DNA of 64,000 bases. Source: an uncultured Rickettsiales bacterium. GTDB taxonomy: Bacteria > Pseudomonadota > Alphaproteobacteria > Rickettsiales > SXRF01. Shown in pieces: positions 6,162 through 57,439 of the stretch. Position 1 is the first letter of the stretch. Each line of letters begins with the position of its first letter. The stretch is taken from NCBI GenBank assembly GCA_964405685.1, contig CAYOOP010000001.1, forward strand, positions 334,922-398,921, read 5' to 3'. The notes beneath the pieces were generated by a model. It searched no databases. It was not told where the DNA came from and saw only the letters and a list, made by a program, of their open reading frames with translations. The position numbers were made by a program, and so were the translations under genes.

Positions 6162-7918
6162 ATTACCCCGCTGGCAGCGTTGATGGCGTACAGCCGCGCA
6201 TAGGCACCCTGTGTGGCAAGCAGCTCGGTGTGCGAACCACTTTCAACCACCCGGCCATTTTCGAGCACGTAAATAACATCGGCGTGTTGAATGGTGGAAA
6301 GGCGATGGGCGATGACGAGTGTGGTGCGGCCTTGCATCAGGGTTTTAAGGGCTTCTTGCACTGCGCGTTCCGACGCGTTGTCGAGTGCACTCGTGGCTTC
6401 ATCAAGCAGCAAAATTGGTGCGTTTTTAAGCATGGCGCGGGCAATCGCCAAACGCTGCCGCTGGCCGCCTGAAAGCCGCGCACCGGCGGCACCGATCATC
6501 GTGTCATACCCTTGGGGCAGCACGCGGATAAATTCATCCGCAGCGGCTGCTTGTGCGGCGGCGATAATTTCTTCCTCGCTAGCACCGCGTTTTCCGTAGG
6601 CGATATTGGCGCGCGCCGTATCATCAAACAAAATCGTTTCTTGCGGCACAAAGGCCATGGACTCGCGCAACGACCTCAGCGTCACCTCGCGAATATCTTG
6701 CCCGTCAATGGTAATGCGGCCTTGTTGTGCGTCATAAAACCGCATCAACATTTGCATGAGGGTTGATTTTCCACCCCCCGATAAACCGACCAGTGCGGCG
6801 GTTTTTCCGGATGGGATGGTGATGGATACACCCTCCACCCCACCGCCTTTTTCGCCGTAGTGGAACGATACGTTTTCAAATGCCACTTCACCGCGAGAGA
6901 CGGTTAATGGTATAGCCGCAGGTGTATCTTCAATAGCAGGCGGTGCATCGAGCACATCAAACAATCGGTTGGCCGCGGCCATACCTTCTTGGAAAACACC
7001 GGTCAACCCAGTCATGGTTTTAAGGGGGCGGTAGGCCATAATAAAGGCGGCGATAAAGGAGAAAAATGCTCCCGGGGTGACTTCGCCACCCACCACTTGT
7101 TTGCCGCCAAAATAAATCACCAATGCAATCACCAAACCGCTGATGATTTCCATCATTGGCGCAGCGGCCACTTGAATGCGGATTGCTTTAAAATAAAGTT
7201 TAAACAAGCGCTCAATCGTGGTGGTCGCGCGCGCCACTTCATAGTCTTCGGCTGTGTAGGATTTGACGGTGCGCACGCCTTGGAAAATATCGTCCAGCTG
7301 CGCGGTAAACTCTCCGAGTTGATGCTGGGTTTGGTCCGACACGCGGCGCATTTTTTTGCTCCAGCGAATCAATAAATAAAGCGGCACTGGGAATGCGAAG
7401 AAGGTAATCATCGTAAGCTCAGGGCTTTGGTAAATCATCACCCCAATTAGGGCCACCATGGTGATAAATTCTTTGGCAATACCTGTAAGCGTGCTGGAGA
7501 CGGCGCTGCGCATCATTTGAATATCGTTAGTAAAGCGCGAGATGAGGCGGCCGGAGGATTGATCCGTAAAAAGCTGCACATCACTTTTCATCAGGTGTGA
7601 AAACAGCGCAAGCTGCATATCGGCAATAATGCGCTGGCCAACGAAGCGCATAAAAAGATTTTGGCCATAATTGCCAATGCCGCTTAAGAACGCAATGCCA
7701 AGCACTAGCAGCGGGATGACCAATAGCTTGTCTGCACGCTTGTTGATGAAAATATCATCGAGCACCGGCTTCATCATATAGGCATTGGCACCGGTCATCG
7801 CCCCGGCCAATGCCATGCACAAAATCGCAAGGATGATGTGCCGTTTATAGGACGCAATGTATTCCCGCATTAAACGCTGCAGCAGTGCTTTGGTTGAGCG
7901 GCGAGTATGATGGATCAT
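6158..7918 (-). CDS. msbA: ABC transporter permease/ATPase fusion, lipid A export MsbA-like
   Basis: 586 aa. Six-helix TMD followed by an NBD with Walker A GLSGGGKST, signature LSGGQRQR and Walker B ILLLDEATSALD. Context with waaA and lpxK. Confidence 0.85.
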   Translation of the reverse strand: MIHHTRRSTKALLQRLMREYIASYKRHIILAILCMALAGAMTGANAYMMKPVLDDIFINKRADKLLVIPLLVLGIAFLSGIGNYGQNLFMRFVGQRIIADMQLALFSHLMKSDVQLFTDQSSGRLISRFTNDIQMMRSAVSSTLTGIAKEFITMVALIGVMIYQSPELTMITFFAFPVPLYLLIRWSKKMRRVSDQTQHQLGEFTAQLDDIFQGVRTVKSYTAEDYEVARATTTIERLFKLYFKAIRIQVAAAPMMEIISGLVIALVIYFGGKQVVGGEVTPGAFFSFIAAFIMAYRPLKTMTGLTGVFQEGMAAANRLFDVLDAPPAIEDTPAAIPLTVSRGEVAFENVSFHYGEKGGGVEGVSITIPSGKTAALVGLSGGGKSTLMQMLMRFYDAQQGRITIDGQDIREVTLRSLRESMAFVPQETILFDDTARANIAYGKRGASEEEIIAAAQAAAADEFIRVLPQGYDTMIGAAGARLSGGQRQRLAIARAMLKNAPILLLDEATSALDNASERAVQEALKTLMQGRTTLVIAHRLSTIQHADVIYVLENGRVVESGSHTELLATQGAYARLYAINAASGVM

Positions 7919-8769
7919 GGCAATTGGCGCTCAGCGTTGGTGGTGAAAGAACTACGCGTGTAATAACGCACACGGTCATCGTAGCTGTTAAGCAGTGCGC
8001 CCAATTTGGGGGCAGGAACCATCGCCCAAAAAGGAGCGCCGACGCTGCCGGTACTGTTAGCAGTGGCGCTGGTACATTTGCAATTGTCGAGTTCATTGAG
8101 GTTAGTAACACCCACGTTATAGCGCGGCACGGCGGTGCTGGTGCCGCTGGCGCGCGGGTACGCCCCATGGCCGTTGGGACCGTGGCTGACAATCACAGCG
8201 ATACCATTGCTAGTGCGAATGGATGTTGTGCCAGTGGACCATTGACTATCTTTGATGATGATGCTCCCAAGGGTCGTGCCACTTGCCGCACCGTGTACGA
8301 CATCGGATAAGGGATAGGTCACGCTTAAGGCACGGGTTCCGGTTGCCCGTGGATCGACCACATAGGTGAACGAGCGGTCCCAAGCATCAAAGCCGTAGTC
8401 ATCCGGCAAGCCCAAGGTCCGGGTGGGCACCAAACCCATGATGATGTTGCTCGCAGGGCCATACGTGCCCCCGGGAGAGGTGCACGTGCCTGCCGCTGTG
8501 TTTTCTAACCCATAGGAAGCATTGTCTGTAGCATAACCGCGGGGGGCGGGGCATGGCAGCCGATTATTCACTTCGACAAATTTCTGGAGGGCAGCCTCAA
8601 TTTGATCCATACGAAAATTCAGCTCTTTATTACGCCGGCGCTCCTGTTCTTGGGTCATCAACGGCAACATGGCCGCAATCATTAGAGCCACAATCGCAAC
8701 GACAATGGAAAGTTCAAGTAACGTAAAACCGGACACGGTCGTAAAGCGGCGTTGTATTCGTACAAACAT
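7915..8769 (-). CDS. prepilin-type N-terminal cleavage/methylation domain protein (pilin/pseudopilin-like, large)
   Basis: Class III signal MFVRIQRRFTTVSG|FTLLELSIVVAIVALMIAAM, with Gly-1, Phe+1 and Glu+5. Start taken at ATG 8769; the ORF extends to 8796. Four Cys residues. The body contains LGLPDDYGFDAWDRSFTY, reminiscent of the pseudopilin DPWG motif. Stop overlaps the msbA start by 4 nt. Confidence 0.75.
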   Translation of the reverse strand: MFVRIQRRFTTVSGFTLLELSIVVAIVALMIAAMLPLMTQEQERRRNKELNFRMDQIEAALQKFVEVNNRLPCPAPRGYATDNASYGLENTAAGTCTSPGGTYGPASNIIMGLVPTRTLGLPDDYGFDAWDRSFTYVVDPRATGTRALSVTYPLSDVVHGAASGTTLGSIIIKDSQWSTGTTSIRTSNGIAVIVSHGPNGHGAYPRASGTSTAVPRYNVGVTNLNELDNCKCTSATANSTGSVGAPFWAMVPAPKLGALLNSYDDRVRYYTRSSFTTNAERQLP

Positions 8770-8810
8770 GGCGCTAATATAACAGGATAATTCCATGAGA
8801 CAACAAGCGT

Positions 8811-29239: not shown

Positions 29240-29259
29240 ATTGTTTCTCCCTATCGTTT

Positions 29260-30060: not shown

Positions 30061-30631
30061 GGCTGGTAACTCCGTATAGCTTTAAGATGCAATGCGTCGG
30101 GGAAGTGACGCTTGGAAGTTGTTCCACGTGAAAAGACCATTTTTTATTCGCCGTGTCCAGTTCTTTATTTGAAAACTCTGTTTTATGTAAAAAATAAATT
30201 GTATCACTGTTTCGAATACGTGATGTCGATTCTAAAATAGTGTCGATGGCAGAAAATGCTCTCGACGTAATTATTTTCACACCATCTATTTTTAAATTTT
30301 CGATTCTAGAATTGTAAACGTAACAATCATCGAGTGAAAATTTTATTTTTGCCTCTTCCAAGAATTGACATTTTCGTCGATCGGATTCGACGAGGTGTAT
30401 TTTTTTAATTCCGGCAATCGCCAAAATAATTCCTGGGAACCCACCCCCAGTTCCAACATCGACCAATTCAGTTTCATGTGGAACATGATCGATAAGTTGG
30501 AGAGAATCTAAAATATGACGATTCCAGATATCCTCATCCCTGGCCATCAGGTTGATTTTACCATTCCATTTTTCAAAAAAATTCTGGAATTTCCTAAGTC
30601 TTGATTCGGTTTCAGGGGCAATAAAGACCAT
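30041..30631 (-). CDS. rsmG: 16S rRNA (guanine527-N7)-methyltransferase
   Basis: 196 aa with SAM motif DVGTGGGFPGIILA. The stop overlaps the parA start by 20 nt. Strikingly low GC: hand counts of 25-32% on lines 30181-30360. Confidence 0.9.
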   Translation of the reverse strand: MVFIAPETESRLRKFQNFFEKWNGKINLMARDEDIWNRHILDSLQLIDHVPHETELVDVGTGGGFPGIILAIAGIKKIHLVESDRRKCQFLEEAKIKFSLDDCYVYNSRIENLKIDGVKIITSRAFSAIDTILESTSRIRNSDTIYFLHKTEFSNKELDTANKKWSFHVEQLPSVTSPTHCILKLYGVTSHGQVKS

Positions 30632-32491
30632 CTAAGCGGCCTTATTATTTGCTTTTTTCACCGCCGCGATCAATATGCTGAGGGCAGCAGGCGTCATCCC
30701 CTGAATCCGACCCGCCGCCATAATGCTGGCCGGCCGATGAGTTTTCAATTTCGATTTTATCTCATTAGAAAAAGAAGGGATGATATCATAATCAATTTCA
30801 TCGGGAATAGTCAGGGCCTCTTCCTTTTTATAGAGGTCGATGTCCAATTGCTGACGTTCTAAATATCCAGAATAGCGTGCCTCGATTTCAATTTGCTCTA
30901 ACACATCCAAGGAAATAGATGCCGACTCCGGCCATAGTTTTTGAACCGTTTCAAATCCAAAATTGCTATAAGAAAGAAGGTCCGTTGCCGTCCTGCGAAT
31001 ACCGTCTTGATTCAAGTTGATATCAAGTTTTTTGGCTTCCGTTGGAGTGACGTTCCACTCTAAAAATTGCTTTTTCCACGCCTCAATTTGCCCCTGTTTT
31101 TTTGTAAAATGCTCGGCACGTTCGGGCGAAATAAACCCACGTTTCAATCCTTTTTGGGTCAGCCTCGTGTCCGCATTATCAGCACGAACAGAAAGGCGAT
31201 ATTCTGATCTGGAAGTAAACATACGGTATGGTTCTTTGGTTCCATGGGTCACCAAATCATCAATCATAACACCGATATATGCATCACTGCGATCAAGCAC
31301 AAACGGCTCATTCGACACCAACGAGATGGCCGCATTAAGGCCGGCGATAAGGCCCTGACCGGCGGCTTCTTCATAGCCTGTGGTGCCATTGATTTGGCCC
31401 GCCAAGTAGAGGCCTTTGACACGTTTTGTTTGTAGAGTATGGAGCAATTCTCTGGGGTCTACAAAATCATATTCAATGGCGTAGCCGGGACGTATCATCC
31501 TTGCGTTTTCAAGCCCAGCAATGGTCTTCAAAAGCCCGAGCTGAACATCCTCAGGAAGGGAGGTAGAAATGCCATTAGGGTAAACCGTCGAATCGTCCAA
31601 GCCTTCGGGTTCCAAGAAAATCTGATGTTTTAATTTATCAGCAAACCGCACGACCTTGTCTTCAATCGATGGGCAATAGCGCGGCCCCGTCGACGCAATT
31701 TGGCCCGAATACATCGGCGCGCGATGCAGGTTGGCACGGATGATGTCGTGGGTCTGTTCGCTCGTGTGGGTAATAAAACAATCAATCTGTGGTACCGTGA
31801 CTTTCTTGGTGAGAGTTGAAAACGGGGTAGGGCAGACATCGCCCGGTTGGCGGACGAGCCGGTCCCATTCAATCGTATTTCCGTCCAATCGCGGCGGGGT
31901 TCCCGTCTTCAAACGGCCGACATTAAACCCCGCATCGCGCAGCGTTTTTGAAAGGCCATAGGATGGGTTTTCATTCACGCGGCCGGCCGGAATTTTCTTT
32001 TCACCGATGTGAATTAATCCGCTTAAAAACGTGCCCGTCGTGAGCACTACGCGGCACGTGGTGATCGATTCTCCGCTCCCAATAATCACCGCTTTCACTT
32101 CGCCGTTTTCAATGGTGATATCTTCAACGCTTGCTTCGACAATTTCAAGGTTCGGATAGTTGCCAAGCACATCCTGCATCGCCGTTTTATAGAGTTTGCG
32201 ATCTGCCTGCGCGCGCGGGCCCCAAACGGCAGGGCCCTTTGAACGATTGAGCATTTTATAATGAATCCCCGCGCAATCAATTACACGTCCCATCACACCA
32301 TCAAGCGCATCGACTTCTTTGACTAGCGTACCCTTCGCAATACCGCCAATCGCCGGATTGCACGACATCTCGCCAATAGTTGCAAATTGATGGGTAACGA
32401 GTGCTGTCTTCGCACCGGCGCGCGCGGAAGCCGCTGCAGCTTCACAGCCGGCGTGTCCGCCTCCAATGACTACGACATCAAAATGTTTCAT
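30632..32491 (-). CDS. mnmG: tRNA uridine 5-carboxymethylaminomethyl modification enzyme MnmG (GidA)
   Basis: True start is ATG 32491 ([19 protein letters not shown]). The 15 extra codons in the track ORF ([14 protein letters not shown]) are the translated upstream palindromic repeat. Confidence 0.95.
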
Positions 32492-32507
32492 ATTTTTGTT
32501 CTCCTGG

Positions 32508-32568
32508 ATCCCCGCCTGCGCGGGGATGACAACCATCTAAAGCAGCAAGCCGCTAAGATGGTTGTCAT
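32508..32568. repeat. tandem hairpins filling the mnmE-mnmG gap (GTCATCC-type GC hairpin plus a 13-bp-stem hairpin)
   Basis: ATCCCCGC-CTGC-GCGGGGAT spans 32508-32527. ATGACAACCATCT (32526-32538) pairs with AGATGGTTGTCAT (32556-32568), and this second hairpin overlaps the mnmE stop codon. Confidence 0.7.
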
Positions 32569-33851
32569 TTGCCGATACAAAACGTTGAAAAGACGACGTC
32601 CAATACATCATCCACAGCAATTTTTCCAGTGATTTTGCCAATCTCACGCGCGGCGAGCCTGAGTTCCTCGCATTTAAGCTCTAAGGGCAGGGGTGTTTGT
32701 GCTTGTTTTAGGCAGATAAGCGCAGCTTCCAGATGCTGACGATGGCGGGCACGGGTGATGATGGGTGAAGCGGAAGAAACGCTGTTTTCAATCCGGTCTT
32801 TAATTGCCGCAATCAACGCTTCCAAGCCTTCACCCGTCTGCGCGGAAATAGCAAGCACTCCGGGCTGTTTTCTACCCAAATCCGCCTTGGTAAGCACACA
32901 CAGCGCATCGGGCTTTGGGGCAGGGCAGGGTGCGTCCATCAGCCACAGCACCAAATCCGCATTTTCAGCGCGTTTGAGCGCGCGTTCGATGCCGATGGCC
33001 TCAATAGACTCAGCACGTTCACGAATCCCTGCCGTATCAATCAAGGTGACGGGATAACCACCAATGTCCATGTGCACCTCGAGCATATCCCGTGTAGTGC
33101 CAGCAATATCAGAAACAATTGCAATATCGCGCTTAGCGAGCGCATTAAGCAGGGTAGACTTGCCGACATTGGGAGCGCCCATAATCACGACGGAAAAGCC
33201 TTCGCGGATACGTTCACCAGCGCCGTTATCGGCGAGCAGGCTTTCGATCTGCTCCCCGGTTTTCTGCAGGGTTACGCCGAATTGAGCGAGGGTTTCTTCG
33301 GGGATATCTTCATCCGGAAAGTCAATATAGGCCTCAATTAAGGCCAAGGATTGAATGATGGAATTTCTAAGCTTTTGATATTGCTCAGAAATAACACCAG
33401 AAAGCTGGGTTAGGGCTTGTTCGCGCTGACGCTCGGTTTCCGCCTCAATCAGATCCGAAAGGGCCTCCACCTCCAGCAAATCGAGCTTACCGTTTAAAAA
33501 CGCGCGGCGCGTAAATTCCCCCGGCTCAGCAAGTCGCATGCCCCTCATCTCACACAGACATTTTAAAAGCGTTTGAATGACGGCGCGGCTGCCGTGGGTA
33601 TGCAACTCCACCACACCCTCGCCCGTAAAGCTGGCTGGAGCATTAAAATAGAGTACTAGCGCGCGATCAATCTCTGTGCCCGTTGTCGGATTTTTGAGGG
33701 TTTTAAGTTGGGCAACCCGCGGTGGTGGCGCATGGGATGTGGTAAGCGCTCCTAGCGCTTCCAATGCACGGGGTCCGGAAATGCGGATAATCGCCACGCC
33801 GGATTTGCCCGGTGGCGTTGCCAGCGCAACGATGGTCGTTTCATGAGCCAT
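32565..33851 (-). CDS. mnmE: tRNA modification GTPase MnmE (TrmE)
   Basis: Start at ATG 33851 (MAHETTIVALATPPGKSGVAIIRISG). G1 motif GAPNVGKSTLLNAL. C-terminal FCIGK is the hallmark. Confidence 0.95.
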   Translation of the reverse strand: MAHETTIVALATPPGKSGVAIIRISGPRALEALGALTTSHAPPPRVAQLKTLKNPTTGTEIDRALVLYFNAPASFTGEGVVELHTHGSRAVIQTLLKCLCEMRGMRLAEPGEFTRRAFLNGKLDLLEVEALSDLIEAETERQREQALTQLSGVISEQYQKLRNSIIQSLALIEAYIDFPDEDIPEETLAQFGVTLQKTGEQIESLLADNGAGERIREGFSVVIMGAPNVGKSTLLNALAKRDIAIVSDIAGTTRDMLEVHMDIGGYPVTLIDTAGIRERAESIEAIGIERALKRAENADLVLWLMDAPCPAPKPDALCVLTKADLGRKQPGVLAISAQTGEGLEALIAAIKDRIENSVSSASPIITRARHRQHLEAALICLKQAQTPLPLELKCEELRLAAREIGKITGKIAVDDVLDVVFSTFCIGK

Positions 33852-33937
33852 AAATATCTCTTTAATGCCACAGGGTTCGCAGGTATAGCTAAAACTCGGC
33901 ATTTATCAATATTCTGTAAACCTTTTGGGACTAGCTT

Positions 33938-35746
33938 GTGGGGCGAAAGAGCCCCCTTAATCTTATGGACGATCTACCGACCCCTCCTGAATCCACTGCC
34001 ACGGCATACGACCCGCTTGCCGCGCCCGCTGCTAAATCCGTAGCGGAAGAAAAACCGCCGCTTCAGGCACCTCGATTGCGGCTCGGTGAAAACCTCATTA
34101 ACAAGGGGCTCATTTCCAATGACCAGCTGAACGTAGCACTCACGGAGCAACGCTCCAACAAGAAGCTGCTTGGCGCGATTTTGGTGGAAATGGGCTTTAT
34201 CACCGAAAGCGTATTGAGCGAGGTGTTGGCCGAAAGCTCCGGCTCAACAAAATTCGATCCCAAGACCGCAGTACTCGATCAGGCCGTAGTCAAAAAACTG
34301 CCTAAAGAGCTGGCGCTGCGAAACAAGATGATTCCGGTGTCACTTAAAGACGACACGCTGATTATCGCGATGGCTGATATTTACAACATTATCGCCATCG
34401 ATCAGCTGCGCAAATACTTTCCAAAAACCCGCATCCAACCCGTATTTTGCGCGGATACGGATGTCGGCGAACTTATTAATCAGTACTATGATTACGAGCT
34501 TGCCATTGACGGCATCTTGAAAGAAATCGAAACCGGGATCAAAGAATCCAACCGAAAACTCGACGGCGCGCAAGAGGGCTATATCAACCCAACCGTACGC
34601 CTGGTAAATGCGATTTTGGTGGACGCGGTGATGAACGACGCATCGGACATTCACTTTGAGCCGGAAGGACATTTTTTACGCATACGTTACCGTGTCGATG
34701 GCCAGATGTGGCAAGCGCGCACCCTGCACCGGGATTATTGGTCAGCGATTTTGGTGCGGATTAAAATCATGTCCGGCATGAACATCGCTGAAACCCGCGC
34801 ACCTCAGGACGGCCGTATTACATTCAGCGTTTCCGGCCGCGATATCGATTTTCGTGTGGCCACTCAGCCAACACTTTATGGTGAAAACATCGTGCTACGT
34901 TTGCTCGATAAAGCCAAATCCCTCGTGCCGTTTGATATGCTCGGCTACAGCGCACACAATGAGGAATTGCTGCTGCGACTGCTCAAGCGACCTGAAGGCA
35001 TTATTGTGGTTACGGGCCCCACCGGATCGGGTAAAACCACCACGCTTTATTCGATTCTAAATTCGATCAACAACATCGATACCAACATCATGACGCTCGA
35101 AGACCCCGTCGAGTATCAGCTACCGATGATCCGCCAAACCAACATACGCGAAGGAGTAATGGAGTTTGCACAAGGCGTGAAATCCCTCCTGCGTCAAGAC
35201 CCTGACGTGATCTTCATCGGGGAGGTGCGCGACGAAGAGACAGCGGTCATGACCGTACGCGCGGCCCTCACGGGGCACCAAGTGTTCACCACGCTCCACA
35301 CCAATGATGCGCTCGGGGTCATTCCGCGTTTGATTGATATTGGTGTGCCGCCAACGCTGCTTTCGGGCGCGCTGGTTGGCATGGTAGCCCAGCGGCTTGC
35401 GCGAAAATTGTGCCCGGACTGCAAAGAGTCCCACACCGCGTCCACAGACGAATGCAAACTGCTTAACGTTCCGGCAACTTCGCTTCCCAAAATTTTCAGA
35501 GCAAAGGGGTGTGGCAGATGCAAGCAGCGTGGCTATCGCGGGCGTGTAGCTATCGCGGAAGTCATCCGCGTTGACCGGGAAATGGACGACTTAATCGCCG
35601 TCGGCGCAACGCGGCGGGTAATGAACGATTATCTCACAAAACAGGGCTTTGTTTCCATGGCCCAAGACGGAATTAATAAAGTACTCGGGGGTGACATCGA
35701 TATTCCCGAGCTCATGAACACCGTAGACTTAACGGATCGACTGTAA
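33938..35746 (+). CDS. type IV pilus / type II secretion assembly ATPase (PilB/GspE family)
   Basis: 602 aa from GTG 33938; alternative ATG at 33965. Features: T2SSE_N-type N-domain, Walker A GPTGSGKTTT, Asp box, Walker B DPDVIFIGEVRD, His box TGHQVFTTLHTNDA, and a tetracysteine CPDC...CGRC zinc motif. Confidence 0.9.
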   Translation: MGRKSPLNLMDDLPTPPESTATAYDPLAAPAAKSVAEEKPPLQAPRLRLGENLINKGLISNDQLNVALTEQRSNKKLLGAILVEMGFITESVLSEVLAESSGSTKFDPKTAVLDQAVVKKLPKELALRNKMIPVSLKDDTLIIAMADIYNIIAIDQLRKYFPKTRIQPVFCADTDVGELINQYYDYELAIDGILKEIETGIKESNRKLDGAQEGYINPTVRLVNAILVDAVMNDASDIHFEPEGHFLRIRYRVDGQMWQARTLHRDYWSAILVRIKIMSGMNIAETRAPQDGRITFSVSGRDIDFRVATQPTLYGENIVLRLLDKAKSLVPFDMLGYSAHNEELLLRLLKRPEGIIVVTGPTGSGKTTTLYSILNSINNIDTNIMTLEDPVEYQLPMIRQTNIREGVMEFAQGVKSLLRQDPDVIFIGEVRDEETAVMTVRAALTGHQVFTTLHTNDALGVIPRLIDIGVPPTLLSGALVGMVAQRLARKLCPDCKESHTASTDECKLLNVPATSLPKIFRAKGCGRCKQRGYRGRVAIAEVIRVDREMDDLIAVGATRRVMNDYLTKQGFVSMAQDGINKVLGGDIDIPELMNTVDLTDRL

Positions 35747-36948
35747 TGCCTATTTATAGCTACACTGCGATCACCAAAAAAGGCCGCGTGATGCGGGGCT
35801 CCAGCACGGCTGAGAACGAGCTCGATTTAGATGCGCGCCTGAAGCAAATGGGGCTGGAGGTGATACGCACGCGCGAGATCAGCGGTGCTCGCCGCCGGCG
35901 TGGAGGGCGCATTCGCATCCGCGATCTGATTATCGTCTGTTTGCATTTGGAACAGCTGGACCGCGCCGGGGTGCCGCTACACGATGCGCTGGCCGATGTG
36001 CGCGATAGTATCGATTCTTCTAAGCTCAAAGAAGTGCTGGCCGATGTCTATGAATCCGTCAAAAACGGTATCGTATTTTCGAAGTCGCTGTCCGAACATC
36101 CGGCGGTGTTTGATTCGGTGTTCGTAGGCCTTATCGCATCTGCGGAAAAAACCGGTAACTTGACCGATTCCTATCACCACCTTGCCGAACACATGAAATG
36201 GAACATGGATTTGCGGCGTAAGGTCAAAAAAGCCGTGCGCTATCCTATCGCGCTGGGTCTGGTGCTCTCCGGTGTGATCGCCGTGCTGATGACGGCGGTG
36301 GTGCCCAAACTTGTCGACTTTATCATGAGCCAAGGCTTCACCCTGCCGTGGCACACCCGCGCGCTGATTGCGTTTTCCAATGCCTTTCAAAACTATTGGT
36401 ATGTGATCTTCGGCATCCCCATATTTTTTATTTTCTTCATCATGCTGCTACGCCGCACCTCCGAAGGCTTCGCCTATCGGTGGGACGCCTTTAAACTTCG
36501 ATTGCCTGTCATTGGGCCTACCTTGCGCAAAATTGACCTGGCACGCTTTTCACAATTTTTCTCGGTGATGTTTAGGAGCGGTATCGACGTGCTGGATGCA
36601 CTCGAGGGTGCCAAAGGCGTTGTGAATAATCGCGTAATTAAAGAATCGATCGACTTTGTGAAAACCAACGTGACCGAAGGTAATTCGATCACCGCATCGC
36701 TGCAGCTTTCCAACCAATTCCCGAACCTCGTCATCCGTATGTTTAAGGTGGGGGAGGACAGCGGTAACATGAACGCCGCGCTTGAGAACATCAACTTTTT
36801 CTATAACCGCGAAGTCAACGACTCGGTCGATAACATGGTCGGGATGATTCAGCCGATCCTCACCGCCGTCATGGGCCTCATGATTTTCTGGATCATCGCC
36901 GCGGTGTTCGGTCCTCTGTACCAGTCGTTCTCGAAGATGAAATTTTAA
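35746..36948 (+). CDS. type II secretion system F family platform protein (PilC/GspF)
   Basis: 400 aa with two T2SSF repeats and three TM helices. C-terminal ...GPLYQSF. TAATG 1-nt overlap with the preceding ATPase. Confidence 0.9.
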   Translation: MPIYSYTAITKKGRVMRGSSTAENELDLDARLKQMGLEVIRTREISGARRRRGGRIRIRDLIIVCLHLEQLDRAGVPLHDALADVRDSIDSSKLKEVLADVYESVKNGIVFSKSLSEHPAVFDSVFVGLIASAEKTGNLTDSYHHLAEHMKWNMDLRRKVKKAVRYPIALGLVLSGVIAVLMTAVVPKLVDFIMSQGFTLPWHTRALIAFSNAFQNYWYVIFGIPIFFIFFIMLLRRTSEGFAYRWDAFKLRLPVIGPTLRKIDLARFSQFFSVMFRSGIDVLDALEGAKGVVNNRVIKESIDFVKTNVTEGNSITASLQLSNQFPNLVIRMFKVGEDSGNMNAALENINFFYNREVNDSVDNMVGMIQPILTAVMGLMIFWIIAAVFGPLYQSFSKMKF

Positions 36949-37748: not shown

Positions 37749-38510
37749 ATGAACACCATCGGCACCCTTACCCTCTGCAAGCGCGAAATCTGGCGGTTTA
37801 TCAAAGTCTGGAACCAGACTGTGGTTGGCCCGGTTGTTACTTCACTGCTCTTTTTAGCTATCTTGGATCTAGCCATGGGCGGGGAACAACGCACGGTGGA
37901 TGGCCTTCAAATGACGCAATTTATTGCCCCTGGCCTCATTATGATGGCGATTACCCAAAACGCTTTTGCCAACACCTCTTCTTCGCTCATGCTCGGGAAA
38001 ATTCAGGGCGTGATCATCGATATTCTCATGCCGCCACTCTCCGGTGCAGAAATCACCTTTGCGCTCGTCATCGGTGGATTGGTGCGTGGAGTTATGGTCG
38101 GTGTTGTCGTAAGCGCCGCACTCTATGTGTTCGTACCTTTTACGGTTGCACACCCGCTTTACGCTGTTTTCCATGTGGTTGCTGCAAGCATTATGCTGGC
38201 CTTGTTTGGCGTGCTGGCGGGCATATGGTCGCAAAGTTTCGACCAGTTGGCAGCACTCACCAATTATGTGATTACCCCACTTGCTTTTTTATCCGGCACC
38301 TTTTATTCGATCAAACACTTGCCTGCGTTTTGGTACCAGCTTTGCCATTTTAACCCCATGTTTTACATGATCGATGGTTTCCGCTATGCCATGACCGGCT
38401 ATTCTGATAGCGTGCCGCTGCTTGGCTCAGCCGTCTTGCTTGGTGTGAACGTCATGCTATGGATTGCGGTGCAAGTAATGATAACCCGTGGAACTTTTTT
38501 GAAAAACTAA
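37749..38510 (+). CDS. ABC-2 type transporter permease (YadH/NodJ-like), no adjacent ATPase
   Basis: 253 aa, six TM helices. N-terminal REIWRFIKVWNQT is typical of ABC-2 permeases. Confidence 0.8.
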   Translation: MNTIGTLTLCKREIWRFIKVWNQTVVGPVVTSLLFLAILDLAMGGEQRTVDGLQMTQFIAPGLIMMAITQNAFANTSSSLMLGKIQGVIIDILMPPLSGAEITFALVIGGLVRGVMVGVVVSAALYVFVPFTVAHPLYAVFHVVAASIMLALFGVLAGIWSQSFDQLAALTNYVITPLAFLSGTFYSIKHLPAFWYQLCHFNPMFYMIDGFRYAMTGYSDSVPLLGSAVLLGVNVMLWIAVQVMITRGTFLKN

Positions 38511-41345: not shown

Positions 41346-42647
41346 ATGGCTAAAACAACTCCACTGCACGAAGCTGTATGGAAAGGCGATATTGAAGCCA
41401 TCGCCAAGCTGCGCAACGAAGCGGGCGAAAAATGGTTTGAATTGCTTACGAAGAAAACCGACCCCTTTGGCGACACGCCGCTACATATTGCAGCACGCAA
41501 AGAAAATGAAAAAGCCATCGATGAATTGTTTCGGGGGCTAACCCAAGACGAACGCGATACATTACGCGCACAAGAAGACAGCCGAGGACGCACGCCTCCG
41601 CAATCTCTCAACAATGAGGGGGGTTCGGTTGAGAAAGTAGTGGTGGCACTTGGGAACAATCAAGACGCACCGACTGCATCCTCCACTTCCCCCGCAAAAC
41701 CAAAACGCGTCTATTCCCTGCGTGATGCCGCACTTGATAACAATGTTGCCGCTATTGTCGGAATCCGCAATGGAATGAAAAAAGAACAGTGGATAGACGC
41801 CTTGGGAGCCGAGAGCCCTCACGGGGATACACCCTTGCGTTTGGCGGTACGGGCAGGGCATGAGGAGGCTATCGCCGAATTATTTCATGGCCTGAGTGAG
41901 GAAAAAAGAAAAGAGCTGCTGGACAAAGAAAACGCGCGCCATCGTACGCTTGCAGATGAGATGAAGCAATTTGCAAATACTGCAAAATACGCCGCCCTAA
42001 CAGCGGTGCTAGAGAGTAGGGAAGATACAGGGGTGCCTCTCATTGCCGAAACCCCTAAACCCAAAACGCCAGAAAAAGCGGAAGAGCCATTACCCCTTTT
42101 GTTTACAGCAGAAGAGCCCAAACAAAGAAATACGCCTTCCGTGGCTGATGCGCCGAAGGAAAACCCAGATGCGCCAGTCGCTGCAATACCACCCCCCGCA
42201 CGTTCGTTTTTTGGTGGCACACCTGCCGAATCCAACAATCCATCACGCGACAATAAAGCATCTCAGCCACAACAAGCCCTGGGCAATATTTTGGCGCTGA
42301 CTGATCACAACGACGATGGGGCAACCTCGTGGAGTGAGTTTAAAACATTCGTAGCCACACGCGGCAAAGAAGTCGCCAAATTCCTCGATACCAACGGCGA
42401 TGGAAAACTTGATGCAAGGGAGCTAGGAGGAAAAGCGCTGACAGATGCGATTGTAAATTCCGGGCTAAACTATAACGACCCGAGAATTATAGGTGGGCTG
42501 CCAGAGGCTGCTAAAAGCTTGGCGAAGATGTTGCACCAAAGCGGCGTGGTGCATGATTACAATGCCCCTCAAAGCCCACAGGGAAACAAGCCGCTGGCGG
42601 AGTTGACCCAGCCCATGAAAATGGGACCTAAGGTGCCGGGCGGCTAG
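41346..42647 (+). CDS. ankyrin-like repeat protein with Pro-rich linker and C-terminal EF-hand pair
   Basis: 433 aa with no signal peptide. Two internally duplicated modules carry ANK-type cores (TPLHEAVWKGDIEAIAKL; GDTPLHIAARKENEKAIDELF; GDTPLRLAVRAGHEEAIAELF). Two canonical 12-residue EF loops: DHNDDGATSWSE (aa 320-331) and DTNGDGKLDARE (aa 348-359). Confidence 0.7.
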   Translation: MAKTTPLHEAVWKGDIEAIAKLRNEAGEKWFELLTKKTDPFGDTPLHIAARKENEKAIDELFRGLTQDERDTLRAQEDSRGRTPPQSLNNEGGSVEKVVVALGNNQDAPTASSTSPAKPKRVYSLRDAALDNNVAAIVGIRNGMKKEQWIDALGAESPHGDTPLRLAVRAGHEEAIAELFHGLSEEKRKELLDKENARHRTLADEMKQFANTAKYAALTAVLESREDTGVPLIAETPKPKTPEKAEEPLPLLFTAEEPKQRNTPSVADAPKENPDAPVAAIPPPARSFFGGTPAESNNPSRDNKASQPQQALGNILALTDHNDDGATSWSEFKTFVATRGKEVAKFLDTNGDGKLDARELGGKALTDAIVNSGLNYNDPRIIGGLPEAAKSLAKMLHQSGVVHDYNAPQSPQGNKPLAELTQPMKMGPKVPGG

Positions 42648-52182: not shown

Positions 52183-52923
52183 TTACGCTGCGGCCTGCAC
52201 TGCGTCCTTTTGGGTAATCGCCTGCAGGAATGCCCGCTCCAAGCTTGGGTCTTGATAGAGTGCTTTAAAGTCCTTTGGCGTACCAATGTAGAGAATCTCT
52301 CCTTGGTGAATCACACCGATACGATCGCAAATCTCATCAATATCCGAAAGAATGTGGGAGCTGAAGAAAATCGTGCTACCCGCTTGCTTAGCTTTCATCA
52401 ACTCACTTTTAAGAGCAATCCGCGCCCGCGGGTCGAGCCCACTCATCGGCTCATCTAAAATATAAAGCGGTGCAGCAATCATAAGTGCTGCCGCTAGGCC
52501 TAGTTTCTGGCCCATTCCTTTGGAATAAGAACCCACGCGCGCCTCTAATACATCGGGGTTTAAATCCAGCGCCTGGCACATGGCGCGCGCATGTTCTTTC
52601 TCCACGGTTTTGCCGTAATACGATAGGGAAAGCTCCAGGTATTCAATGCCACGCAAATAGCGCGAAGGCTGAAATTTCTCAGGCAAATAGGAATATTGTT
52701 TGCGGGCTTCCACCTCAAACGCCGCGTGGCCAAACACTTCTACCCGCCCGTGGTCTGGATAAATCAGATTCAGCACGGTTTTGATCATGGTGGTTTTGCC
52801 GGCACCATTTAGACCAATCAACCCAAAGATCTCTCCCGACACCAGCGATAGCGAGGCCTGTTTCAAAGCAGCGTGCACGCCATAGGTTTTACTAATGGCA
52901 TCAATGGTAAGTGGTGTGGTCAT
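52183..52923 (-). CDS. ABC transporter ATP-binding protein (ABC-2/CcmA-like subfamily), no adjacent permease
   Basis: 246 aa with Walker A GLNGAGKTT, signature YSKGMGQKLGLA, Walker B LYILDEPMSGLD and H-loop SSHIL. 4-nt overlap with the upstream hypothetical gene. Confidence 0.88.
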   Translation of the reverse strand: MTTPLTIDAISKTYGVHAALKQASLSLVSGEIFGLIGLNGAGKTTMIKTVLNLIYPDHGRVEVFGHAAFEVEARKQYSYLPEKFQPSRYLRGIEYLELSLSYYGKTVEKEHARAMCQALDLNPDVLEARVGSYSKGMGQKLGLAAALMIAAPLYILDEPMSGLDPRARIALKSELMKAKQAGSTIFFSSHILSDIDEICDRIGVIHQGEILYIGTPKDFKALYQDPSLERAFLQAITQKDAVQAAA

Positions 52924-53663
52924 TGGGGTTTCTCCAAAGCTTTGTTGCGGTTAAGTAGTCCTTCGAATCCTTGATTGCTAGGTGGGGTGGGCTCAGGTGT
53001 TACCGAGGGTTCTTCCTCAGGCAAAAGAGGATTAAACACAGCCTCTAGCCCCGGAAGTGATTTGGCCTTTGGTAAAAGCGCGGGGTCAATTTGGCCTGCG
53101 TTTACCGTAACGGGTTCCACCTGACCCTCATAGGTTTTAAGGGTATAGGTAGAAAAGGTTTGGTTGGGCCTAAGCGTGAACGTAATGGTGCGACTAGCCG
53201 CATCCGTTTGCACATTGGCACCATGATCGTCAGAGCGAAAATCGATCGGATCCGATTCCTTAGCGCGGAATTTAAACATGATGTAGTTCGAAGAGACCTC
53301 TTCAATGGTAAGGCCAGGAAGCGTTGCGGCATTAGAAGGGTTATAGGCAAAGCGATTAAGCCAAAATGTCCAGCGGTTGGCACCCTGATATGCCAGCGAA
53401 TTGAGATAAAACTGCGGATAGGTATAATAGCTTACAATCGTTTGGGGTTCATTGGCGGGTTGTTCGGCTTCTTGAAGCCCGATCCCAGCAATCAGTTGGT
53501 TTTTGCGTTTTTGCTCCAGCCCATTAAGCGTGATCATTTCTTGATCGCTAAAAAAGATAGAATGGTATTCGCTCGGCAAAGGCTCGGGCTTTGCGGGTGG
53601 CGGCACTTGGGCATAGGCGTTTGCTGCCCAAAAAAGCCCCACCAGGTACCATGCGCGTCTCAT
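52920..53663 (-). CDS. hypothetical secreted protein (architecturally PilP/GspC-HR-like)
   Basis: 247 aa. Signal peptide MRRAWYLVGLFWAANAYA|Q. Central beta-rich segment LNSLAYQGANRWTFWLNRFAY...LTIEEVSSNYIMFKF. Pro/Glu-rich tail. The family assignment is inferred from architecture only. Confidence 0.6.
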   Translation of the reverse strand: MRRAWYLVGLFWAANAYAQVPPPAKPEPLPSEYHSIFFSDQEMITLNGLEQKRKNQLIAGIGLQEAEQPANEPQTIVSYYTYPQFYLNSLAYQGANRWTFWLNRFAYNPSNAATLPGLTIEEVSSNYIMFKFRAKESDPIDFRSDDHGANVQTDAASRTITFTLRPNQTFSTYTLKTYEGQVEPVTVNAGQIDPALLPKAKSLPGLEAVFNPLLPEEEPSVTPEPTPPSNQGFEGLLNRNKALEKPQ

Positions 53664-54331
53664 TTCTTACCTCCTGAGGGAGGGGTGGAAGAGTTTTTTT
53701 CCAGCAATTTGAGCCCAAACCATTTGGCATCAATACTCACAGCTACGGCGGGTTCTTCTTTTTTCACTTTGTCCCCAAGCTCGGCGCGTTTCAGTGTCAT
53801 CGTAAATCGTGTCATTTGAATGACACCGCCAAAGGCGCTGCGCATCTGTTTTAGTAAGCGCTCCATGCTTTCGTCCGTATACAAAAACATTTGTGGAATC
53901 GTGATATCGGCCGATACCACTACGGCTTGTGGACGCTTCAGGGATGTTTCAATGCTCTCGCGCACTGGGTCGATGCGTGCTCGCGAATTTTCGTCTGACG
54001 CTTGCGGTATTTCAAACGCGTAGCTTTTGCGAAGCACCTCTAATTGTGCGGAGGCGATGTTCGGGTCGATGCTTTCTTTGCCATTGGTGAGGTGTAGCTT
54101 TTCATAAATGGGGCGCGCTTCACGCACAATTTTGGTTTTGGTTCGCCCTTCTTCAGTCTTTTGCATGAGTTGGTTGTATTCGCCCTGAAGCTTGGTGGCC
54201 TGATCTTCCAGCGAGCCCGAAAGGCTGCTGATAGCCGCAAATACGGTGCCCGTAACACCCAACAGCATCACCGCCAATATGGCGCGTTTTCTAATTTTAC
54301 TAAGTACGTATTTGCGTTGGTACATCAGCAT
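53660..54331 (-). CDS. hypothetical bitopic membrane protein (architecturally PilO/GspM-like)
   Basis: 223 aa. Short basic N-terminus, one TM helix (AILAVMLLGVTGTVFAAISSL), a coiled-coil stretch, then an alpha/beta C-domain. TAATG overlap with the upstream gene. The analogy rests on architecture only. Confidence 0.6.
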   Translation of the reverse strand: MLMYQRKYVLSKIRKRAILAVMLLGVTGTVFAAISSLSGSLEDQATKLQGEYNQLMQKTEEGRTKTKIVREARPIYEKLHLTNGKESIDPNIASAQLEVLRKSYAFEIPQASDENSRARIDPVRESIETSLKRPQAVVVSADITIPQMFLYTDESMERLLKQMRSAFGGVIQMTRFTMTLKRAELGDKVKKEEPAVAVSIDAKWFGLKLLEKNSSTPPSGGKK

Positions 54332-56094
54332 TAGGGTGTACCTTGCGTGGTGGTGTCGGGTGATTTTTCAACCCCATTAAAACTAAGGCTGGTGACAATG
54401 TCGCGTCCCACCGCCTGTTGTTCTCTGATGCGTCCGCCTAACGGTACGGCATCGGGTTTAATCTCAGGAATCTCCGCAAAGGTGATCTTATATCCGTCAA
54501 ACAACGGGCCAATGGAGGCCAGCGCTTCGTTGAGTGTTTTCTGGATTTCCTCATTACTTTGCTTGGGTTCGGTCGTAAATATCACATCCACCTTGGCGTA
54601 AATCTTCGTTTCCACACCGCCGTTAGCGGCTCTCATCGGCGGCGATGACTTGCCAAAGGGGTCTTCGATTTTCCAATCCAAGCCATTAAACTGGAACCGC
54701 GGCCCCAAGCGTTCCTTAGCCGCAGATAGGCGCAACAAAAAGGTCTCGGGGCCCATTTCGCGCTGCTCTATCGCGCGCAATACGTCCATCACATCTTTGA
54801 TTTTCTCTACATCGTCAATGGTTGCCATTTCGGCTTCGACACTTGCAAGTTCTTTGACGGTGGTTTGTTTTTTCTGCGCCAATTCCGATTTTTTTCCATA
54901 GGCACCCCACGCATCATAGGCCTTAATGCCTGCACTGCCAACAAAACCAACCGCAATAATCACCGGCAACACCCGCACCACCAGCAAAGAGCGGTGCAAT
55001 TGCAATAGCTGGCCTAAAGTTTTAGTGAGTGTGTTAAATGTAGGCCGGCGGAGCCTCGCGGCGGCGCTGGCTGTTACCATATCGCCGTAACGGTCATTGG
55101 GCTGGGTGGCATTGACAAGCTGCAGCCATTCCGCGGTTTGATGTGGGGTGGAGGTTACGAAGGACTTGACGCCTGCGCGTTTGGGGTCAATGGTCTGCAG
55201 TACCTCTTGGCTTGCGATGATATGCAGGTGCAGATCTTCGGCCTCACGCAGACCTAAACGTTTAAGGTATTCAACCGTGCTGTTGATTTCCTGTTCCACC
55301 AACCCCGCAATTACGTCCGATACGCCTTGGAGGGTTTGCCCCACACGGGTAAAAATCATTTTCCCATCTCGCAAAATAACCTGGCGAAAACCACTTACTT
55401 TTTGGTGTGAAAGCAAATAGAGCCACGCATGCGTAGGTGTATTGGGGTTGGCACTGGTTTTTTGGTAGAGCGCCCGAATCACCGCTTCCATTTCAAGCGG
55501 CAGGAGCCGTATGCCAATACAGCGGTTCGGCGTCGTCACAATCCACGTAAGCCATTGACTTACGGTGTCGGTGGCATCGGCTGAGATCATTTGAAATAGC
55601 CATTCTTTTTTACCTTTTTCCCGACCCAGAACCCGCGCGCCCTTAATTTCCGAATTCGCGAATTCACGGCGCAAGCGCCGTTTCATAATCGCTGAAAGCC
55701 CCATTTTATTCACAGGTGGGAGGTTTTGTTGAATATAGGTTTGATCGAGCGTGTCTAAAAACACCAAAAACGGCACATTGGGGTGGTCAACAATGGCGCG
55801 TTTAAACAGCTCGAAGTGCTCTTCCTTAGCTTCGGGCGCATACCACCGCCCCTCCACCACACCTTTTTGCAAGAAAATCAAAATCGCGCCGTCGTCACCA
55901 ATCAGCAGGACAAAAGCGGTTCTTTTGTCAAATTTGAATTTGGGTGCCTTGCGCTTAGACAGGCGAAACTTTTTCTTCGGGGGTGGCGGGGTGGTTTCAG
56001 ACACTGTTTTTTCAGGCGGCTGTGGGGGCACTGCTTCCGTGGAAGAAGCCGCATCGCCGCTTCCCGGTCGCTTGCGTCTAAAAGAAAGTGCCAT
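54331..56094 (-). CDS. hypothetical bitopic membrane protein (architecturally PilM-PilN fusion / GspL-like)
   Basis: 587 aa. Basic Pro-rich N-terminus (aa 1-58). About 300-aa cytoplasmic domain whose pattern recalls the actin-like PilM fold (FVLLIGDDGAILIF..., IRLLPLEMEAVIRAL, WLYLLSHQKVSGFRQVILRDGKMIFTRVGQ) but lacks the DxG nucleotide motifs. One TM helix (aa about 368-390), then a coiled coil and an alpha/beta periplasmic domain of about 190 aa. Confidence 0.6.
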   Translation of the reverse strand: MALSFRRKRPGSGDAASSTEAVPPQPPEKTVSETTPPPPKKKFRLSKRKAPKFKFDKRTAFVLLIGDDGAILIFLQKGVVEGRWYAPEAKEEHFELFKRAIVDHPNVPFLVFLDTLDQTYIQQNLPPVNKMGLSAIMKRRLRREFANSEIKGARVLGREKGKKEWLFQMISADATDTVSQWLTWIVTTPNRCIGIRLLPLEMEAVIRALYQKTSANPNTPTHAWLYLLSHQKVSGFRQVILRDGKMIFTRVGQTLQGVSDVIAGLVEQEINSTVEYLKRLGLREAEDLHLHIIASQEVLQTIDPKRAGVKSFVTSTPHQTAEWLQLVNATQPNDRYGDMVTASAAARLRRPTFNTLTKTLGQLLQLHRSLLVVRVLPVIIAVGFVGSAGIKAYDAWGAYGKKSELAQKKQTTVKELASVEAEMATIDDVEKIKDVMDVLRAIEQREMGPETFLLRLSAAKERLGPRFQFNGLDWKIEDPFGKSSPPMRAANGGVETKIYAKVDVIFTTEPKQSNEEIQKTLNEALASIGPLFDGYKITFAEIPEIKPDAVPLGGRIREQQAVGRDIVTSLSFNGVEKSPDTTTQGTP

Positions 56095-56173
56095 AGGCCT
56101 CTTGCCTGCTGCGTTGCATATCTCAACGCTATAGCAACTATCCTATTAAAGCGCAAAAGATTTGCGGCTTTGT

Positions 56174-57439
56174 TTACGAATTCATTTTTTCAAAAAACTC
56201 AGCATTCGTTTTGGTATCGCGGAGTTTTTCTTGGATAAACTCCATCGCTTCGCCCGGACCCATCGGGTGCAAGATGCGGCGGATGACCCACATTTTTGTG
56301 AGTGTCTGCTTATCGACCAAGAGATCTTCTTTGCGCGTGCCGGATTTATTGATGTCAATCGCCGGGAAGACGCGCTTATCCGCAAGCTTGCGATCGAGCA
56401 CAATTTCCGAGTTACCGGTGCCTTTGAATTCTTGGAAGATCACTTCGTCCATCATGGAACCGGTATCGATCAATGCCGTTGCGATAATCGTGAGCGACCC
56501 GCCATTTTCAATGTTGCGTGCCGCGCCGAAGAAACGTTTAGGCCGGTGCAGGGCCTGCGCGTCCACGCCACCGGTTAGAATTTTACCAGACGATGGCACC
56601 ACCGTGTTGTAGGCGCGCGCCAGACGAGTAATTGAGTCGAGCAAAATTACCACGTCTTTTTTGTGCTCAACGAGTTTTTTCGCTTTTTCTATGACCATTT
56701 CCGCGAGCGCCACATGGCGGTGTGCGGGTTCATCGAACGTTGAGCTAACCACCTCACCGTTAACGGTGCGCGCCATATCTGTCACCTCCTCCGGCCGCTC
56801 ATCGACTAGAAGAACGATCAGGTAAGCATTTGGGTGGTTGGTGGTAATGGCGTGCGCGATGTTTTGCATCAGCACGGTTTTACCGGTGCGGGGCGGAGCA
56901 ACAATCAACGCACGCTGACCGAAACCAATAGGTGTCACAATGTCTGCAACACGCATGCTGATGTCATTTTTCTCTTTGCCTTTGGGACGTTCGAACTCCA
57001 GCTGAATGCGGCGTTCGGGATAGAGCGGCGTGAGGTTATCAAACGTAATGCGGTGGGTAATCGCCGCCGGATCGTCAAAGTTGATTTTGAGCACTTTGGT
57101 AAGCGCAAAATAGCGTTCGCCATCTTTCGGTGCACGAATTTCGCCCTCTACCGTATCGCCGGTACGCAGTCCGAATTTCTTGACTTGGGTGGGCGATATG
57201 TAAATATCGTCCGTACCCGCTAGATAGTTGGCCAGCGGCGAGCGCAGGAAGCCAAACCCGTCGGAGAGAATTTCGATCACGCCTTCGCCGGTGATCACTT
57301 CGCCGTTTTCGGCGTGGCGTTTTAAGATAGAGAAGATCATCTCCTGCTTCAGCATGTTGCTGGCATTTTCAACGCCCAGTTTTTCGGCGAGCTGAAGGAG
57401 ATCGTTCGCGTTTTTACGCTTGAGTTCTTGAAGTTTCAT
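56174..57439 (-). CDS. rho: transcription termination factor Rho
   Basis: 421 aa. N-terminal Rho_N, cold-shock-like RNA-binding domain (GFGFLR), and Walker A APPRTGKT. Confidence 0.97.

Follow-up and report, generated by a model that had tools for sequence, protein, structure and literature searches.

A four-gene operon beside rho in an uncultured Rickettsiales bacterium: a very probable type IV filament assembly platform, coupled to an ABC ATPase

The machines closest to the locus described here are the type IVa pilus with its PilMNOP proteins (Pseudomonas aeruginosa, Myxococcus xanthus, Thermus thermophilus), the T2SS (type II secretion system) with GspL, GspM and GspC or GspB, and the mannose-sensitive haemagglutinin (MSHA) pilus with MshE, MshG and MshI-N. 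Two alpha-beta-beta units form the layout of the periplasmic domain in PilN, PilO, GspL and GspM. PulL, a GspL, corresponds to a fusion of PilM with PilN (PMC10191384), and T2SSB, the homology-region domain of GspB/OutB, shares its fold with the homology region of GspC and with PilP and binds the secretin's N0 domain (PMC9239104). According to PMC3724824 (citing Wu et al. 1998) and PMC6060248, M. xanthus requires the ATP-binding cassette (ABC) transporter PilGHI for type IV pili, and its ATPase, PilH, is needed for pilus biogenesis. For basal Rickettsiales and related uncultured Alphaproteobacteria, pilB, pilC, pilD, pilT/U and an MshL-like secretin have been listed, with canonical pilM/pilN in few (PMC9352585, supplement). 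We analysed 64,000 nucleotides (nt) from an uncultured Rickettsiales bacterium (assembly GCA_964405685.1, contig CAYOOP010000001.1, positions 334,922 to 398,921), hereafter the window, in which an earlier note, made from the sequence alone, had proposed a cryptic operon of PilMN-, PilO- and PilP-like genes joined to an ABC ATPase gene. We conclude that the first three genes, here called X, Y and Z, very probably encode the inner-membrane and periplasmic platform of a predicted type IV filament machine; the fourth, the ABC ATPase gene, is called A.

All four minus-strand open reading frames (ORFs) were borne out by the ORF check; lengths are in amino acids (aa).

54331..56094, minus strand: X, 587 aa, bitopic, modelled as a PilM-like actin-fold domain, one transmembrane (TM) helix and a PilN-like periplasmic part
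53660..54331, minus strand: Y, 223 aa, bitopic, putative PilO/GspM-like partner of X
52920..53663, minus strand: Z, 247 aa, predicted secreted beta-sandwich protein
52183..52923, minus strand: A, 246 aa, ABC-2/ABCA-type nucleotide-binding domain (NBD), coupled to Z

The overlaps behind the proposed translational coupling could be read directly in the sequence: at the three junctions from X to A (CCCTAATGCTG, AAATGAGA and CAATGACC) neighbouring genes share 1 nt (TAATG), 4 nt (ATGA) and 4 nt (ATGA), respectively. The distance of 79 nt to rho also stood, since the rho stop codon occupies 56174-56176 and X starts at 56094. Genomes and metagenome contigs that carry the same gene set number more than 80, and X, Y, Z and A are therefore real genes. 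A word-indexed search retrieved 32 relatives of X, and a profile search of 1.84 billion representatives returned 1986 at E<=1e-3, 621 of them reaching E<=1e-30, counted at the 50% identity clustering level.

The gene context of these relatives ties X-Y-Z to a pilus. A one-genome-per-species scan gave 113 X relatives, from which 80 loci were kept for context analysis, all from uncultured Alphaproteobacteria and many carrying a Rickettsiales label. ORFs were called in the fetched loci and assigned by phmmer and hmmsearch, and counts out of 74 or 47 cover only the loci where the feature can be judged. The earlier note had held that its proposal would fall if the operon occurred in genomes without PilB, PilC and prepilin genes; we found pilC as the immediate upstream neighbour of X at 72 of 74 loci. 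The commonest full order, pilB-pilC-X-Y-Z-A followed by two convergent PilT-family genes, was present at 31 loci, and precomputed gene calls of four independent contigs gave the same order. Two PilT/PilU-family genes were in the cluster at 31/47 loci, the clustered PilT-like genes exceeding the cut-off of TIGR01420 (PilT/PilU). Across loci the X/Y and Y/Z junctions overlapped by a median of 4 nt. Linkage of X-Y-Z to pilB, pilC and pilT/pilU is shared with the type IVa PilMNOP genes, whereas the gene that follows Z is that of an ABC ATPase instead of pilQ. Between the window proteins and their orthologues, identity was 64% (PilB), 62% (PilC), 60% (A), 32% (X), 28% (Z) and 22% (Y).

The window lineage is the exception to this arrangement. 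Both the window and its two nearest relatives, whose X is 52% identical, have the order rho-X-Y-Z-A-DUF3576-porin, and the four genes have therefore moved as a unit away from pilB and pilC, which in the window lie 16 kb from X-Y-Z-A. The PilB/PilC pair and a stray prepilin gene that had been reported in the window were confirmed by their coordinates, Pfam matches and N_methyl motif.

33938..35746, plus strand: PilB-type extension ATPase (Pfam T2SSE and MshEN), ancestral operon neighbour
35746..36948, plus strand: PilC/GspF platform protein (Pfam T2SSF)
7915..8796, minus strand: prepilin-like protein, 293 aa, with a class III signal, GFTLLELSIVVAIV, cut after G (G / FTLLELSIVVAIV), and an N_methyl motif; candidate filament subunit

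The machine that the earlier note had pictured as dispersed is not so in origin: the ancestral state is one compact cluster, split only in the window lineage. The detached position, beside rho and the genes of a porin and a DUF3576 lipoprotein and 16 kb from pilBC, could also suit an independent envelope system for ABC-driven lipid handling, cell division or defence, with no tie to filaments. FtsA was indeed a significant fold match of X, and one source labels a homologue 'FtsL'. The same four genes nevertheless lie inside the pil clusters of relatives, the window still encodes PilB, PilC and a prepilin, and PADLOC had no match for X, Y or Z. The detached order is, moreover, kept in two relatives with a 52%-identical X, from which it follows that selection acts on the genes as a unit, and we consider an independent system very improbable.

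The second line of evidence for a filament platform is the predicted structure of X, in which three parts can be told apart.

55024..55923, minus strand: X cytoplasmic actin-like domain, aa ~58-357 (predicted local distance difference test score, pLDDT, mostly >90; conserved residues; fold matches)
54931..54987, minus strand: X TM helix, aa 370-388 (hydropathy peak 2.33; within a long model helix, 358-425)
54370..54747, minus strand: X periplasmic domain of two alpha-beta-beta units, aa ~450-575 (DSSP of the model, pLDDT ~70-85)

The AlphaFold2 model, built on 32 sequences, had a mean pLDDT of 80 and exceeded 90 over most of residues 60-400. When it was compared with the PDB by Foldseek, nine PilM chains came out on top (E 9e-11 to 1.3e-8), among them 5eou and 2ych (E 9e-11 to 2e-9), with target-normalised TM-scores of 0.53-0.60. 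FtsA ranked next, followed by the cytoplasmic domains of PulL/EpsL/GspL (E 7e-7 to 1e-5). In the model the cytoplasmic domain thus has an actin-like fold of the FtsA/PilM type, best matched by PilM, as would be expected of a type IVa platform, and no confident match to an unrelated family appeared. Past this domain runs a continuous helix, 358-425, that comprises the TM segment and a coiled coil; the earlier note had placed a single TM helix at aa ~368-390, and hydropathy (aa 370-388) and the model support this, along with the alpha/beta nature of the periplasmic part. There the order of elements by DSSP is H450-463, E467-477, E497-507, H514-532, E535-539 and E565-575, that is, two alpha-beta-beta units where ferredoxin-like domains had been anticipated. 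A PilM-like fold followed by a TM helix, a coiled coil and two alpha-beta-beta units means that a PilM-like domain is fused to a PilN-like half, and X is, as modelled, a PilM-PilN fusion of GspL-type architecture, on which model and hydropathy agree. PilM and PilN are thereby present in a single polypeptide, unlike in the type IVa platform: in X the domain is part of one covalent chain with the TM helix and the periplasmic part and is not a separate soluble protein that binds the PilN N-terminal peptide.

The most conserved positions of the X family are G66, D67, G69, E201, F248, R250 and Q253, with which the faintly PilM-like pattern noticed earlier (GDDG, LPLEMEAV and FTRVGQ) coincides. G66-D67-x-G69 is nearly invariant and sits in the first beta-hairpin of the model (E60-66/E70-76), which in actin-fold ATPases is the site of the phosphate-1 DxG. 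As read from the sequence and alignment, the second lobe begins SHxKVxGFRQ where DxGGxT is expected, and there is no GG adenosine motif. The suggestion that X lacks DxG motifs therefore holds for the second phosphate and adenosine motifs, which are not recognisable, and fails for the conserved G66-D67-x-G69.

Y, the neighbour of X, diverges so fast that a database search retrieved Y alone, and 76 syntenic orthologues were obtained by an iterative hidden Markov model search of the fetched loci; the syntenic family occurs at 79 loci. Its single TM helix near the N-terminus, proposed earlier, was placed at aa 17-35 by hydropathy, and from its sequence and its alignment to X we infer a coiled coil and an alpha/beta periplasmic domain. 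The N-in bitopic topology of PilN, PilO and GspM was seen in the AlphaFold2 model for the C-terminal half of X, and the TM helix was seen in Y. When the Y family was aligned by hhalign with the C-terminal half of X, the probability was 94.4% (E 9e-8, 122 columns). It fell to 2.6% with a reversed X alignment and to <=0.5% with column shuffles, so the signal is more than coiled-coil composition. From its topology, its position beside X and this profile similarity, Y is best read as a PilO/GspM-type paralogous partner of X, in keeping with the earlier PilO-like call; X and Y would be bitopic paralogues, as are PilN and PilO, and the topology of Y is equally GspM-like.

The third product, Z, would complete a PilMNOP-like set as a periplasmic beta-sandwich protein. 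Eight relatives were found in a database search and 72 by synteny, and the conserved blocks include TYPQFYL, W.VW.NG.K and FTLRPNQTF. A signal peptide, a beta-rich core and a Pro/Glu-rich tail, all noted before, were seen in the sequence and the model. The N-terminus, MRRAWYLVGLFWAANAYAQ, is signal-peptide-like and has no lipobox Cys; across the family the N-termini end AYA-Q or ALA-Q with neither a Cys nor a TM helix, so that the membrane attachment of PilP, GspC and GspB is missing. Z thus differs from PilP, a lipoprotein, in its predicted cleavable signal peptide, and from GspC and GspB in lacking their N-terminal membrane anchor. The AlphaFold2 model had a mean pLDDT of 52, rising to ~64-87 in the core (aa 83-172), with about nine beta-strands over aa 85-179. 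Foldseek found no significant neighbour for it, the PilP chain 3jc8_Pa ranking 23rd with E 1.2. The sole recurrent family signal was PF16537 (T2SSB), which matched the family consensus over aa ~85-135 at E 0.0026 and 17.8 bits, below its gathering score of 28.4, and gave sub-threshold matches in 9/72 members; weak FN3-like and titin matches occurred too, also when the profile was compared with PDB sequences. The earlier PilP-like call is hence backed by the sub-threshold T2SSB match and goes against the missing lipobox, the low-confidence model and the lack of a significant structural match. We infer a PilP-like role for Z by analogy, as the weakest part of the assignment. Orthologues of Z range from 232 to ~470 aa, mostly owing to Pro/Ala-rich low-complexity linkers flanking the conserved core, and one ORF call of 625 aa is probably spurious. 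Such linker variation would fit a flexible periplasmic tether.

Several of these features are also those of a T2SS. X shares its fused architecture with GspL (PMC10191384), whose cytoplasmic domains were significant fold matches; T2SSB is the one family that recurs in Z; and the prepilin-like protein matches the first 60 residues of the GspG model. The window PilC scored highest on the GspF model (296 bits, against 253 and 234 bits for PilC models, all under cut-offs), and its PilB scored about equally on the GspE and PilB models. T2SSs have no PilT (PMC10191384), however, whereas the two PilT/PilU-family retraction ATPases above cut-off in 31 of the 47 clusters belong to the same cluster as X-Y-Z. 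Nor did we find a linked gspD or a pseudopilin (gspG-K) block at the related loci, and PilM was a better fold match than GspL for the cytoplasmic domain of X, which at ~300 aa is also larger than that of GspL (~235 aa). A machine of T2SS type is accordingly improbable in our judgement. As its genes read, the machine is type IVa-pilus-like with T2SS and MSHA features.

Among the MSHA features is the MshE-type cyclic di-GMP-binding motif at the N-terminus of the window PilB (NF053729, 68.5 bits against a cut-off of 38), which suggests that the filament motor is under cyclic di-GMP control. The secretin of related basal Rickettsiales has also been assigned to KEGG mshL (PMC9352585, supplement), and a conserved tetratricopeptide repeat (TPR) protein stands beside the X-Y-Z cluster, as in MSHA. 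This protein of ~430-550 aa lies just past the two PilT genes in 37 loci (L004, L005 and 35 others; in L005 at 14385-15695). It may serve the same machine as a pilotin or as an MshN-like accessory factor, and no counterpart was found among the window ORFs scanned. The differences from MSHA are the linked pilT/pilU, MSHA clusters being described as without PilT (PMC10191384), the presence of an ABC ATPase and absence of an ExeA-like MshM, and the lack of any NCBIfam or Pfam match of X, Y and Z to Msh proteins. One locus with the full cluster, L074, is the metagenome-assembled genome UBA6187, which Schön et al. put in the basal rickettsial family Athabascaceae (PMC9352585). X-Y-Z plausibly fill the pilM/pilN gap of the basal Rickettsiales.

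A number of results weigh against a filament platform. X, Y and Z have no similarity at the sequence level to PilM/N/O/P or GspL/M/C, whether through Pfam, NCBIfam, PDB profiles or the Escherichia coli Hof and Gsp proteins, and in this respect they differ from the type IVa proteins. None of the three has a Pfam or NCBIfam match at E<=1 beyond noise, which agrees with the earlier remark that no family motif could be recognised in these products. The consensus of the X cytoplasmic domain likewise had no match at E<=1 in either collection, PilM_2 included, and X did not match a T2SSL or GspL_C model there. Among PDB sequences the X profile returned only TM and coiled-coil noise, including the PilN chain 3jc8_Na at E 0.08, and the Y profile only coiled-coil proteins. 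Y and X compared with the PilN, PilO and T2SSM models also gave noise, with T2SSM at E 0.039 on the TM/coiled-coil region of the Y consensus. Scans of individual members of the Y and Z families were likewise noise, T2SSB for Z excepted. Profile comparisons with the single E. coli proteins GspB, GspC, HofP, GspM and HofO gave no match, and phmmer searches of all loci and the window with E. coli GspL, HofM, HofN, GspM and GspC found nothing. The similarity of Y to X comes mainly from the membrane-proximal coiled coil (93%), and the globular parts alone reach 10.8%, a caveat to the finding that X and Y are two paralogous partners side by side in the manner of PilN, PilO and GspM. The window lacks both a secretin and a PilT gene, and the related clusters have no secretin within 10 kb; phmmer with E. 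coli GspD, HofQ and GspA had no match in the loci or the window, and GspO matched two loci. Finally, no permease or other conserved gene with several TM helices is linked to A within 10 kb in ~67 clusters.

For X-Y-Z as the platform of a type IV filament machine we propose the following mechanism, in which the X-Y dimer, the docking of X and the bridging by Z are taken from knowledge of PilMNOP and GspLMC. The actin-like domain of X would dock PilB/PilT hexamers and PilC, as in PilM and GspL, and the fusion would make the PilM-PilN contact covalent by way of the one TM helix of X. The paralogous Y would be the partner of the coiled coil and periplasmic domain of X, on the pattern of the PilN-PilO and GspL-GspM pairs, and Z would connect the X-Y dimer with the N0 ring of a secretin that is encoded elsewhere. 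The least certain step is that of A, which would most probably power an unlinked ABC-2 permease supporting filament biogenesis through pilin or secretin handling, comparable to PilH with PilI.

A looks like a functional ABC-2-type ATPase that has evolved together with the cluster. It matched ABC_tran in Pfam (3e-22) and DrrA in NCBIfam (4.7e-47), as well as the GldA and RbbA models, and its nearest PDB sequences were NBD2 of ABCA3/ABCA4, TM0544 and NosF. Its Walker A, signature, Walker B, D-loop and H-loop motifs (GLNGAGKTT, YSKGMGQK, ILDEPMSGLD and SSH) are kept in 57 A orthologues, which makes it a complete NBD, and these family models and intact motifs uphold the reading of the fourth gene as an ABC-2-type ATPase. 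Orthologues were recognised by the YSKGMGQK signature and an LPEKF Q-loop, with variants. They directly follow Z at 59/67 loci, are divergent from pilB at four, and are absent within 10 kb at the remaining four, so that A belongs to the pil cluster at 63/67 loci and is about as conserved as PilB and PilC (60% against 64% and 62%). The link between A and the pilus drawn in the earlier note is strengthened by this retention, and its precedent is documented for Myxococcus (PMC3724824). As with PilGHI, an ABC-2-type ATPase gene lies within a type IV pilus cluster. Unlike PilH, A is never beside a permease: neither a PilI-type permease nor PilG is adjacent in the ~67 A clusters, whereas PilI is in-cluster in M. 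xanthus. A is also coupled to platform genes and not to pilA/pilD, and the likeness to PilH is one of gene context alone.

With no linked permease at hand, we considered where a partner of A might be encoded. An ORF beside the divergent A copies was rejected as a permease, since its product is helical, soluble and free of predicted TM segments. Among the conserved neighbours only CcmF has several TM helices. The window does encode one permease of the appropriate class.

37749..38510, plus strand: YadH-like ABC-2 permease (ABC2_membrane; NF011648, 205 bits; 38% identical to E. coli YadH)

Its family is 47-73% identical across 74 metagenome loci (L091-L170), and no NBD gene was found on 79/80 related metagenome contigs (<=6 kb each side, many contigs being 1-3 kb long). 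The permease was never near pilB, pilC or X in the 80 related loci; linkage to pilBC was therefore rejected, and its closeness to pilC in the window is probably a coincidence. Systematically orphaned on these contigs, the family would need an unlinked ATPase, and the YadH-like permease is a reasonable candidate partner of A.

Such a pairing admits two roles for A. It could be a housekeeping NBD that serves an ABC-2 exporter encoded elsewhere, such as the YadH-like permease, and that shares a transcript with X-Y-Z while playing no part in the filament. The strong conservation of that permease and the undetected NBD gene on 79 of its 80 contigs fit this role, as do the absence of a linked permease or PilG-like gene at every locus and the four clusters of 67 without a copy of A within 10 kb. 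What leaves it, in our view, quite possible but short of probable is the persistence of the pil linkage, which holds throughout a deep clade whose X proteins are just ~32% identical and has outlasted two types of rearrangement (divergence from pilB in four loci, and the move together with X-Y-Z), as well as the translational coupling to Z in the window and the PilH precedent (PMC3724824). A role of A in filament biogenesis is possible, if short of probable. That A is an obligatory component of the filament machine, which energises pilin or secretin handling through the YadH-like permease or by docking directly on the platform, and that the cluster represents an unrecognised lineage between type IVa pili, T2SS and MSHA, is a bolder and somewhat doubtful proposal. 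We are similarly hesitant about the combination that such a lineage would join, namely a GspL-type fusion, a T2SSB-like linker, an MshE-type PilB and retained PilT/PilU.

The type IV filament assembly platform is a known kind of system. New here are three sequence families that current models do not recognise, the combination of a GspL-type fusion with PilT/PilU, and a permease-less ABC ATPase conserved in the cluster. We found no prior description of X, Y or Z in the searchable literature, whose coverage is incomplete, so that this absence is weak evidence. The three families supply the platform that is missing from 'incomplete pilus' calls, as the current Pfam and NCBIfam models miss X, Y and Z; new models of these families would set such calls right in lineages that are used to study the evolution of host association. 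The presence of a GspL-type fusion alongside PilT/PilU bears on the divergence of type IVa pili, T2SS and MSHA. To the Myxococcus example A adds a second one, phylogenetically independent, of an ABC ATPase gene inside a pilus cluster; we know of no accepted mechanism for the Myxococcus pilus ABC transporter.

The short interval between rho and X contains a conserved element.

56095..56173, minus strand: rho-X spacer, with a conserved 15-nt block, GATAGTTGCTATAGC, at 56128-56142 and the ribosome-binding site AAGAGG

AAGAGG lies 5' of the X ATG. The GATAGTTGCTATAGC block is identical in the window and its two closest relatives (L089 and L090), though the X proteins are only ~52% identical; it contains the palindrome GCTATAGC, occurs as a single copy within the window, and is absent upstream of pilB and of the prepilin gene there. 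It could be a promoter or operator, and we regard it as a candidate for either. A scan found no minus-strand terminator in the rho-X interval, and promoter-like sites (7, against 5.3 +/- 2.5 in shuffles) and terminator-like sites (14, against 9.9 +/- 2.9) were near expectation. Scanning the window for Rfam families and tRNAs gave no match. A GCGCAAA-TCT-TTTGCGC hairpin lies immediately 3' of the rho stop codon.

The other pilus genes have neighbours of their own. The prepilin-like gene overlaps msbA (6158-7918, minus strand) by 4 nt and heads an apparent operon at 6158-8796 (minus strand) of prepilin, msbA, a Kdo transferase gene and lpxK. The coupling of a pilin-like gene to genes of lipid A export and synthesis appears unusual, as judged from this gene order. 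In the window pilB diverges from mnmE, only ~35 nt away. At ~15 of the related loci (L005, L061, L065 and others) the region directly upstream of pilB holds the cytochrome c maturation genes ccmE, ccmF and ccmH, which are on the opposite strand, a neighbourhood with no evident functional link. The genes mnmE, mnmG, rsmG, parA and parB, together at 28331-33902, form the usual origin-proximal arrangement, and the chromosomal replication origin is probably not far from the window.

Two further genes of the window are of note. At 41346-42647 (plus strand) a protein of 433 aa carries ankyrin repeats and an EF-hand motif, a eukaryote-like domain set that hints at a host-associated lifestyle. The gene at 23559-28184 (plus strand) encodes an NAD-specific glutamate dehydrogenase of 1541 aa, which belongs to the large bacterial type.

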